A stretch of DNA of 64,000 nucleotides from Clostridium sp. CAG:354_28_25 (GTDB taxonomy: Bacteria; Bacillota; Clostridia; TANB77; CAG-508): assembly GCA_001915925.1 (NCBI GenBank), contig MNRL01000010.1, positions 6,140-70,139 of the forward strand, given 5' to 3'. A program made the translations under genes and the position numbers. The notes beneath the pieces were generated by a model. The model worked only from the letters and a program-made list of their open reading frames with translations, was not told the DNA's origin and did no database searches. Below are positions 57,946 to 58,191 of the stretch, piece after piece; positions within the stretch are counted from its first letter, which is position 1, and every line of letters starts with the position of its first letter.

Positions 57946-58191
57946 ATGGAACAAATTTTAGTAGCAACAATGAGTAGCATCGGTTGGATGCTAGGCCTAA
58001 CATTCCTTGGTTTAGGTATAGGAATTGGAATCTTAGGTTCAAAAGTAGCAGAAGCTGTAGGTAGAAATCCAGAAACAAAAAGTGATATTGTACATTCAGT
58101 AATGACAATATTAATAGTAGTTGCAATATTCTTATTACTACTATTCGCATTTATATTTTTATTATTATTTTATAATCCTTTAACAGTATAG
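57946..58191 (+). CDS. atpE: F-type ATP synthase subunit c-like proteolipid (2 TM helices). Lacks the conserved helix-2 ion-binding Glu/Asp.
   Basis: RBS AAGGAGGATG. Helix-1/loop [22 protein letters not shown] matches the c-subunit GxGxGxG...ARQPE pattern. The position 20 residues after the loop Arg is Ala (VVAIFLLL). No acidic residue anywhere in helix 2. Confidence 0.65.

Follow-up and report, generated by a model that had tools for sequence, protein, structure and literature searches.

The 64,000-nucleotide (nt) stretch of DNA analysed here (hereafter, the window) comes from Clostridium sp. CAG:354_28_25 (assembly GCA_001915925.1, contig MNRL01000010.1, positions 6,140 to 70,139 of the forward strand) and contains a gene for a homologue of the c subunit of F-type ATPases with alanine in place of the ion-binding Glu/Asp. 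Judging from its sequence, this protein of 81 amino acids (aa) is a genuine F-type c subunit that has lost the entire ion-binding site. The gene belongs to a cluster that also encodes homologues of F1 subunits, a predicted peripheral stalk and large surface proteins. We consider it probable, at roughly 0.6, that this cluster specifies a dedicated F1-like motor that hydrolyses ATP and possesses the whole stator stalk, and in which the c-ring would be an ion-independent rotor or anchor acting on the co-encoded surface proteins.

57946..58191, + strand: c-subunit homologue, 81 aa (open reading frame, ORF; Pfam and PDB matches, MAFFT alignment).

The c gene carries a Shine-Dalgarno sequence, AGGAGG, 7 nt upstream of its ATG. 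The protein matches the Pfam family ATP-synt_C (PF00137) over residues 12-73 (E 9.1e-8, 32.7 bits, gathering score 24) and the c subunits in the PDB at E-values from 1e-9 to 1e-3, among them Acetobacterium woodii c1 (4bem_J, 1.3e-9) and c2/3 (4bem_A, 2.7e-7) and the Ilyobacter tartaricus subunit (1yce, 2.5e-5). In a MAFFT alignment with the c subunits of E. coli, Bacillus PS3, I. tartaricus, spinach and B. pseudofirmus, the Gly-rich packing motif of helix 1 (GxGxGxG; G22xG24xG26xG28) and Arg40-Asn41-Pro42 of the polar loop (G39-R40-N41-P42-E43) align without gaps with all five canonical proteins, the loop lying opposite their R-Q-P. The initial annotation of this DNA had pointed out the match of helix 1 and the loop to c subunits and had placed the equivalent of the essential carboxylate 20 residues past Arg40. 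The arithmetic is correct, and in the MAFFT alignment the residue in the column of E. coli Asp61 and I. tartaricus Glu65 is Ala60. The annotation also quoted helix 2 correctly and rightly described it as devoid of acidic residues: the last such residue of the protein is Asp47, and helix 2 is wholly hydrophobic. Because no Asp or Glu follows Asp47, a shift of the alignment cannot restore a carboxylate in this helix. At the remaining positions whose side chains act as ligands in I. tartaricus, Q32, S66, T67 and Y70, the protein has Ile, Ile, Phe and Leu, respectively. The protein scores below the NCBIfam equivalog cut-offs for F0F1 subunit C (PRK06876, 30.5 vs 71 bits; TIGR01260, 25.7 vs 43.95). 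Thus, this c homologue passes the Pfam family threshold, yet lacks the functional hallmark of the family, the Glu/Asp of helix 2.

The substitution is shared by a large set of relatives. A word-indexed protein search yielded 1516 homologues of c, and helix 2 is free of acidic residues in 118 of the 120 closest database clusters. The other two, each a single short contig, carry a Glu 18 or 30 residues after the loop Arg, never 20. The residue at this latter position is Ala in 115 of the 120 clusters, Thr in three and Ser in two. In an exhaustive HMMER search against 1.84 billion representatives, the carboxylate-less proteins form a separate clade, and the matches that come next are c subunits of the ordinary kind, with Glu. 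When one genome per GTDB species was scanned, 35 loci were detected, all in metagenome-assembled genomes (MAGs), with the names Clostridia, Lachnospiraceae, Mobilitalea, Bacilli, Erysipelotrichaceae, Peptococcia, Family XIII and Coriobacteriales; Candidatus Merdicola and Candidatus Scybalousia appear among the MAG names of the homologue cluster members. The helix-2 carboxylate is absent in all 35 loci, as the initial annotation proposed to check in other species: the column of E. coli D61 in the 35 full-length sequences contains A (22), T (9), M (2), V (1) and L (1). The five side-chain ligand positions of I. tartaricus, including E65, are hydrophobic in each of the 35 family members (Q32 is replaced by L/I, E65 by A/T, S66 by I/V, T67 by F/L and Y70 by L/I). 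With the same pattern in 35 loci from separate species-level genomes and in 118 of the 120 close homologues, a sequencing error is ruled out.

The c gene is under strong purifying selection. Nei-Gojobori estimates of the ratio of nonsynonymous to synonymous substitution rates (dN/dS) for the window gene against 10 relatives range from 0.07 to 0.2, with synonymous sites close to saturation, and helix 2 is no less constrained than the remainder of the gene. Mean column conservation is 0.78, the highest among nine cluster proteins (0.70 for alpha and 0.68 for beta), and reaches 0.91 in the most conserved block, the loop that binds gamma and epsilon in canonical enzymes; the GRNPE sequence of this loop is invariant in 34 of 34 aligned family sequences. 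Taken together, the sequence comparisons indicate a widespread family that is selectively maintained in gut Firmicutes.

Separately, the representatives include many c subunits fused in tandem, at 2 to 14 hairpins per polypeptide (P0226, P0238, P0247, P0254 and P0261). One such protein, of 1139 aa, contains 14 matched stretches; in the N-terminal sequence displayed for these proteins, the hairpins retain Glu. These tandem multi-hairpin proteins may form single-chain or few-chain c-rings.

The gene for c is the third in a cluster of at least ten co-directional, closely packed genes with Shine-Dalgarno sequences. The other nine are as follows.

50942..56395, + strand: giant surface protein, 1817 aa, first gene of the cluster (ORF; positional homologues).
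56450..57931, + strand: membrane-anchored surface protein, 493 aa (ORF; directly upstream of c in 32 loci).
58204..58965, + strand: predicted b-delta fusion, 253 aa (AlphaFold2 and Foldseek).
58983..60332, + strand: alpha-like subunit, 449 aa (Pfam ATP-synt_ab, 5e-70).
60329..61123, + strand: gamma-like subunit, 264 aa (Pfam ATP-synt, 5e-27, 95.7 bits with a cut-off of 39.9).
61204..62571, + strand: beta-like catalytic subunit, 455 aa (Pfam ATP-synt_ab, 8e-68).
62564..62854, + strand: short epsilon-like subunit, 96 aa (position after beta; weak profile match).
62856..63470, + strand: membrane protein with five predicted transmembrane (TM) helices, 204 aa (ORF; kept after epsilon in 22 loci).
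63373..64000, + strand: tenth gene, of which the window holds only the start (ATG at 63373, AAGGAG 8 nt upstream).

The order c-(b-delta)-alpha-gamma-beta-epsilon is that of a canonical atpEFHAGDC operon. No a subunit was found in the cluster or elsewhere in the 64-kb window. The Pfam family ATP-synt_A has no match at E <= 1 among the cluster proteins or among 20 orthologues of the 5-TM protein, and neither an a subunit nor a second c is ever present in the cluster across the 35 loci and the distant relatives; the window itself contains no second c-like ORF. The 5-TM protein, which has a Lys/Arg-rich cytoplasmic tail, was considered as a divergent a subunit and rejected: hhalign against the E. 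coli a subunit gives a probability of 0.1%, ATP-synt_A does not match, and the family has no invariant Arg or any other invariant charged residue (R67 is R, K or N). It has no PDB or Pfam matches and is a candidate for a stator in the membrane that would pair with the putative ring. With both the rotor carboxylate and the stator Arg absent, ion translocation by the known mechanism would lack its working parts. The proposal of the initial annotation that this c subunit cannot translocate H+ or Na+ by that mechanism is therefore supported, both by the five hydrophobic ligand positions and by the absence of an a subunit from the operon.

The components of the F1 head are recognizable and divergent. 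The alpha-like protein, in which the C-terminal domain is shortened, scores below the cut-off of each NCBIfam model concerned (PRK13343, 431 vs 554; atpA, 407 vs 484; MMOB1660, 386 vs 600; MSC_0619, 309 vs 520). It aligns to the canonical models from residue 3-4 and to the mycoplasma models from residue 27; the N-terminal helix, which binds delta in canonical enzymes, is retained. All 33 alpha sequences preserve GDK(K/R)TGKT and SVSRLG, the latter being the Arg-finger motif. The gamma subunit is conserved in all loci and scores 62 bits against the NCBIfam model TIGR01146 (cut-off 194). The beta-like protein comes close to the atpD model (447 bits, cut-off 463), and both alpha and beta fall below all the NCBIfam equivalog cut-offs, canonical, N-ATPase and the two mycoplasma families alike. 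The Walker A motif and the Walker B Asp are kept in all 29 true beta sequences, the DELSEED loop is largely kept, and the catalytic GERxxE motif is kept throughout the family. With the F1 catalytic motifs intact, the motor is predicted to be competent.

The epsilon-like protein consists of the beta-sandwich only and lacks the regulatory C-terminal helical hairpin. The sole PDB match of its family profile is mitochondrial delta, the homologue of bacterial epsilon (5fl7_H; a weak match, E 1.6, N-domain to N-domain). The family hidden Markov model (HMM) links at E 5e-5 to the epsilon subunit of a divergent cluster, L042, which is itself recognized by Pfam ATP-synt_DE_N.

The protein encoded directly after c shows no match at the sequence level, either to Pfam or, with the family profile, to PDB sequences, and was identified by structure prediction. 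The listed ORF opens with GTG at 58195; the ATG at 58204, with AGGTGA 5 nt upstream, fits the homologues of 253 aa. An N-terminal TM segment and a long b-like helix are followed by a disordered linker and a C-terminal delta/OSCP-like domain. In the AlphaFold2 model (mean predicted local distance difference test score, pLDDT, 77), residues 3-74 form a helix, and residues 105-256 form a domain composed of a helical bundle and a beta-sheet, with pLDDT of about 90. The top 33 Foldseek matches of this model in the PDB are all ATP synthase delta/OSCP chains, including the b-delta protein of Mycobacterium smegmatis (probability 0.9-0.99, E of about 1e-3, 140-180 aligned columns). The modelled fold thus points to a b-delta peripheral stalk fusion.

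In three Bacilli/Firmicutes MAGs, alpha carries a C-terminal extension of approximately 230-380 residues that has no Pfam match (L017:11011-13500, L018:7367-9397, L019:2776-4467).

The remaining genes of the cluster code for predicted surface proteins. The 1817-aa protein has no match to any Pfam family; its topology, as read from the sequence (MKK followed by a hydrophobic segment at residues 5-22), comprises an N-terminal signal-anchor TM segment, a conserved juxtamembrane region, an acidic and Gly/Ser-rich low-complexity linker, and long beta-rich repeats. Homologues of 1600-2700 aa occupy the same place in every related locus with enough upstream DNA. In two of these giants (L005:1276-8112 and L021:37-8127), the spacer of the window protein is replaced by collagen triple-helix repeats at residues ~260-360, which suggests a trimeric stalk that would cross the cell wall. 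The 493-aa protein is built similarly, with an N-terminal TM segment, a conserved juxtamembrane domain of ~200 aa, a Gly/Ser/Asn linker and a distal FN3-type domain; it is best conserved at residues ~140-220, and positions ~310-400 of its family profile match the FN3 domains of tenascin and fibronectin in the PDB (E 2e-6). A paralogous base domain common to the two proteins is unsupported (best BLASTP E-value 0.047).

The product of the tenth gene starts with a Lys/Glu-rich cytoplasmic region, and its full-length copy in another locus (L001) adds a TM helix and an extracellular domain of ~200 aa. This gene overlaps the 3' end of the 5-TM gene by 98 nt (63373-63470) in another frame, both frames coding for Lys/Glu/Arg-rich low-complexity sequence. 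The conserved family of ~240 aa to which it belongs is encoded directly downstream in 27 loci, with a large protein beyond it, in most related loci a membrane-anchored one of 850-1400 aa; a search of PDB sequences with the family profile returned nothing significant. The layout of these surface proteins, with an anchor, a juxtamembrane domain, a low-complexity or collagen-like spacer and FN3 or beta-rich repeats, would suit wall-spanning fibrils based beside the ring.

The cluster is a single transcription unit, to judge from the tight packing, the Shine-Dalgarno sequences and the absence of a terminator on the + strand between 49800 and 64000; a promoter scan was uninformative at the GC content of 28.6%, with 108 promoters found and 94 expected. 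The 54-nt gap between the genes for the giant and the 493-aa protein contains a 10-bp GC-containing palindromic hairpin (56409-56434). This element is scored as a terminator on the minus strand only and may be an attenuator or a processing site.

The gene order is conserved in relatives, and the synteny of c with the surface proteins holds across the 35 species-level genomes. Every related locus with enough flanking DNA encodes, in succession, a giant protein of 1600-2700 aa, a protein of 440-660 aa, c, b-delta, alpha, gamma, beta and epsilon, and the usual downstream genes encode a multi-TM protein, an anchored protein of ~240 aa and another anchored protein of 850-1400 aa. Even in two clusters in which c is only 38-39% identical to that of the window, L036 and L042, homologues of both surface proteins are detected with family HMMs (giant, E 1e-44 and 3e-54; 493-aa protein, E 9e-34 and 5e-29, respectively).

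Two of the relatives merit separate description. The divergent whole cluster L042:1-20254 (JGI 3300013843, Ga0181310_1123549) encodes proteins of 711, 1831 and 780 aa, c, a 342-aa protein, alpha, gamma, beta, epsilon and, further downstream, a protein of 1521 aa, and its genes are intact only when TGA is translated. Five of its 15 in-frame TGA codons align with Trp in L036, a relative that uses genetic code table 11; therefore, an organism with genetic code 4, resembling Mollicutes, carries the family, including c and the stalk protein. In the reduced relative L040:1-5579, directly after the gene for a carboxylate-less c come those for an alpha of 419 aa, a gamma, a beta of 547 aa and a short epsilon. 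It contains no b-delta gene and no giant proteins, and two small proteins with an N-terminal TM segment and a coiled coil are encoded upstream.

Under the scenario that we favour, alpha3beta3-gamma-epsilon, the b-delta peripheral stalk and the c-ring would form a second kind of F-type complex. Without an a subunit or an ion path, such a complex could only hydrolyse ATP. ATP would drive gamma, epsilon and the c-ring to turn against the b-delta stator, and the rotation, not being spent on pumping, would be passed within the membrane to the 5-TM protein and to the N-terminal anchors of the giant FN3/collagen-like surface proteins, so that the machine would move, tension or assemble a cell-surface structure. 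We infer ring formation, rotation and the surface proteins as the load from synteny and from the anatomy of the predicted proteins. Several points weigh against this scenario. Its support is computational throughout, and what connects the motor to the surface proteins is synteny. The assignment of the epsilon subunit in the window is weak, and the AlphaFold2 model of the 5-TM protein is unreliable (pLDDT 52, from a shallow alignment that contains only homologues 65-95% identical). Given the reduced relative L040, surface proteins are not an obligatory partner of every carboxylate-less c. Finally, a canonical a/c pair from elsewhere in the genome could possibly mix into the ring, in the way A. 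woodii c1 does with c2/3.

A broader proposal, to which we give somewhat less than an even chance, is that these clusters represent a new and widespread class of rotary machine, present in walled Gram-positive bacteria and in at least one Mollicutes-like lineage in which TGA codes for Trp. Such a machine would possess the first natural c-ring that lacks the ion site and works without an a subunit, would transmit torque across the membrane to giant surface fibrils that span the wall, for example in surface motility, adhesion control or fibril extension, and would be a structural intermediate between F1Fo and the F1-like X0 ATPases of mycoplasmas.

Among the rival explanations, the one that survives best, although we consider it unlikely, is that the ring does not rotate productively and instead tethers to the membrane an F1-like ATPase, which would power or chaperone the giant proteins as they are exported, inserted into the wall or folded, in the manner of the F1-related FliI/FliJ ATPase in type III export. 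The giants, which have N-terminal anchors only, need to be threaded through the membrane and the wall, and for a ring with a purely hydrophobic surface and no a subunit there is no evident structure to push on; the FliI/SctN models also give scores with alpha and beta, as they would with any F1 subunit. Rotation is nevertheless favoured over tethering because the stator stalk is retained in full, as are the elements that transmit torque and the loop by which c binds F1. A complete peripheral stalk is kept, with b-delta and the alpha N-terminal helix, and resistance to torque is the one role known for such a stalk; the parts through which torque is passed on, namely gamma, the DELSEED loop and the invariant loop of c, are conserved; and the cluster encodes no protein resembling an export gate.

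Less probable still is the persistence of ion coupling, with the protein as a minority member of a mixed c-ring served by an a subunit from elsewhere, or with an unconventional binding site. The nearest relative of solved structure, A. woodii c1, indeed has Gln instead of Glu in its second hairpin and resides within a functional Na+ ring. Against this stand the cluster's own alpha, beta, gamma, epsilon and b-delta, diverged below the canonical NCBIfam cut-offs, which argues for a separate complex; the consistent lack of an a subunit or a second c in the related loci and of a further c-like ORF in the window; and the hydrophobic residues at every ligand position, not at that of Glu alone. As for a decaying pseudo-operon or a sequencing or assembly artefact, the loss of an 'essential' residue is what would be expected of a pseudogene, but this reading is refuted by the uniformly intact reading frames, the low dN/dS (0.07-0.2), the 1516 homologues, the recurrence of the pattern in 35 species and the retained catalytic motifs. 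Of the two possibilities raised in the initial annotation, a non-pumping rotor or anchor is accordingly the one that stands, whereas a pseudo-c in the sense of a decaying gene does not, c being the most conserved protein of the cluster.

The DNA of the window is chromosomal: rpoB and rpoC lie at 27911-35265. A plasmid origin of the cluster was rejected, a tblastn search of b-delta against 72,556 plasmids giving no match, and so was an origin as a defence system, with no PADLOC matches among nine cluster proteins. Other parts of the window encode several further large proteins of the Gram-positive adhesin type, with thioester (TED), SpaA/prealbumin-like, DUF11 and SdrD-B domains (35456-44396 and 190-4763), so that surface proteins are unusually abundant in the window as a whole. 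The window also encodes an enzyme resembling a single-module non-ribosomal peptide synthetase with a reductase end (C-A-T-R; 15528-19805, - strand), beside a stand-alone AMP-binding enzyme (20090-21634, + strand), and a zeta-toxin family protein (44861-45703, + strand).

The helix-2 carboxylate of c and the Arg of the a subunit are treated as defining parts of every membrane sector of the F, V and A types. The family described here appears to discard both, yet strong selection keeps its ring subunit, central stalk, catalytic head and peripheral stalk. It would extend the re-use of rotary ATPases beyond ion coupling outside the mycoplasmas, where such re-use has been thought of as a lineage-specific oddity, and would provide a natural test of how a c-ring behaves without ion binding. 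It is also a candidate energy source for the giant surface proteins of abundant uncultured gut Firmicutes. In practical terms, annotation pipelines label such genes 'F0F1 ATP synthase subunit C/alpha/beta', so that an ion-coupled synthase would wrongly be credited to these organisms in metabolic reconstructions.

Compared with canonical c subunits (E. coli AtpE; I. tartaricus, 1yce), the window protein shares the two-helix hairpin of ~80 aa, GxGxGxG, the R-(Q/N)-P loop, the C-terminal (A/Y)NP(F/L) and the location of the gene directly before b/delta-alpha-gamma-beta-epsilon; it differs in the missing helix-2 carboxylate, and its operon in the missing a subunit. A. woodii c1, the best match of solved structure, is the known natural example of an F-type protein with a Glu-less hairpin (the second one, AVAQTTG). 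It is, however, a duplicated protein of four helices in which one Glu remains, and a working Na+ ring contains it once, its neighbours being c2/3 subunits with Glu, whereas the window c is a single hairpin, devoid of the site, and the only c in its operon.

The N-ATPases (atpDCQRBEFAG) are likewise second, laterally spread F-type operons without a separate delta gene. They retain both an a subunit and a c subunit that has the full Na+ site; no equivalents of a, AtpQ or AtpR were found by Pfam in the window cluster, and its proteins fall far below the N-ATPase models of NCBIfam (alt_F1F0, TIGR03322/03323/03324/03305; c 13.9 vs 130.85, gamma 32.7 vs 282.35, alpha 359.3 vs 750.5, beta 403.5 vs 752). 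The b-delta protein of M. smegmatis (7nkd/7njk, chain d) similarly combines a membrane-anchored b helix and a delta domain in one chain; in contrast to the window protein, it is ~445 aa long, has a partner b' subunit and belongs to a proton-translocating synthase.

[quoted passage not shown] This second operon, beside the canonical one, is limited to Listeria sensu stricto (PMC13082608, PMC3091722, PMC5736727), and an insertion in lmo0091 reduces intracellular replication of L. monocytogenes (PMC3091722). In a comparison of annotations, the core order matches that of the window cluster, and no Listeria proteins are present among the matches of the c family. On the lead of this annotated order, the Listeria operon may be a cultivable member of the family; if that is true, a tractable model is possible.

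The closest parallel in principle comes from the mycoplasma F1-like X0 ATPases, namely Type 2, including the G1-ATPase of Mycoplasma mobile gliding, and Type 3, associated with MIB-MIP (PMC3369863, PMC11864180, PMC12994834); searches of the literature gave no account, from outside the mycoplasmas, of a cluster of the F1-like kind or with a carboxylate-less c. Both the mycoplasma systems and the window cluster involve an extra set of F1-derived alpha, beta, gamma and epsilon encoded beside unrelated membrane and surface proteins, very hydrophobic membrane segments without a charged residue, and ATP that is proposed to power a function at the cell surface instead of ion flow (PMC3369863, PMC11864180, PMC12994834). 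Gliding of M. mobile and MIB-MIP are thus a precedent for surface systems driven by F1-like ATPases (PMC11864180, PMC12994834). The differences are nevertheless substantial. The X0 ATPases include no homologue of c, b or delta, and their alpha-like proteins lack the N-terminal delta-binding helix (PMC11864180, PMC12994834), whereas the window cluster has c, the predicted b-delta and this helix; the gene order differs as well, and the hosts of the window type are walled Bacillota. In comparisons with the PDB, the window beta is closer to canonical F1 beta subunits, its best matches (320-375 bits), than to M. mobile G1-beta (303 bits). Neither mycoplasma family takes in the window proteins by score: the values are 386.4 vs 600 (glide_MMOB1660) and 370.1 vs 850 (glide_MMOB1670) for Type 2, and 308.6 vs 520 and 398.7 vs 570 (MSC_0618/0619 families) for Type 3. 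Type 2 beta has an N-terminal extension of ~30 kDa and no accompanying stalk genes, in contrast to the unextended 455-aa beta and the b-delta of the window. The Type 3 order is 12-TM protein, protein 2, gamma, epsilon, protein 5, alpha, beta, with a link to MIB-MIP (PMC3369863, PMC12994834), and the window cluster contains neither a 12-TM protein nor a MIB/MIP-like Pfam match. By these comparisons the cluster lies outside the mycoplasma families, yet it resembles the F1-like X0 ATPases in principle and, in evolutionary terms, is a likely intermediate for the motors that serve gliding and antibody cleavage in mycoplasmas.

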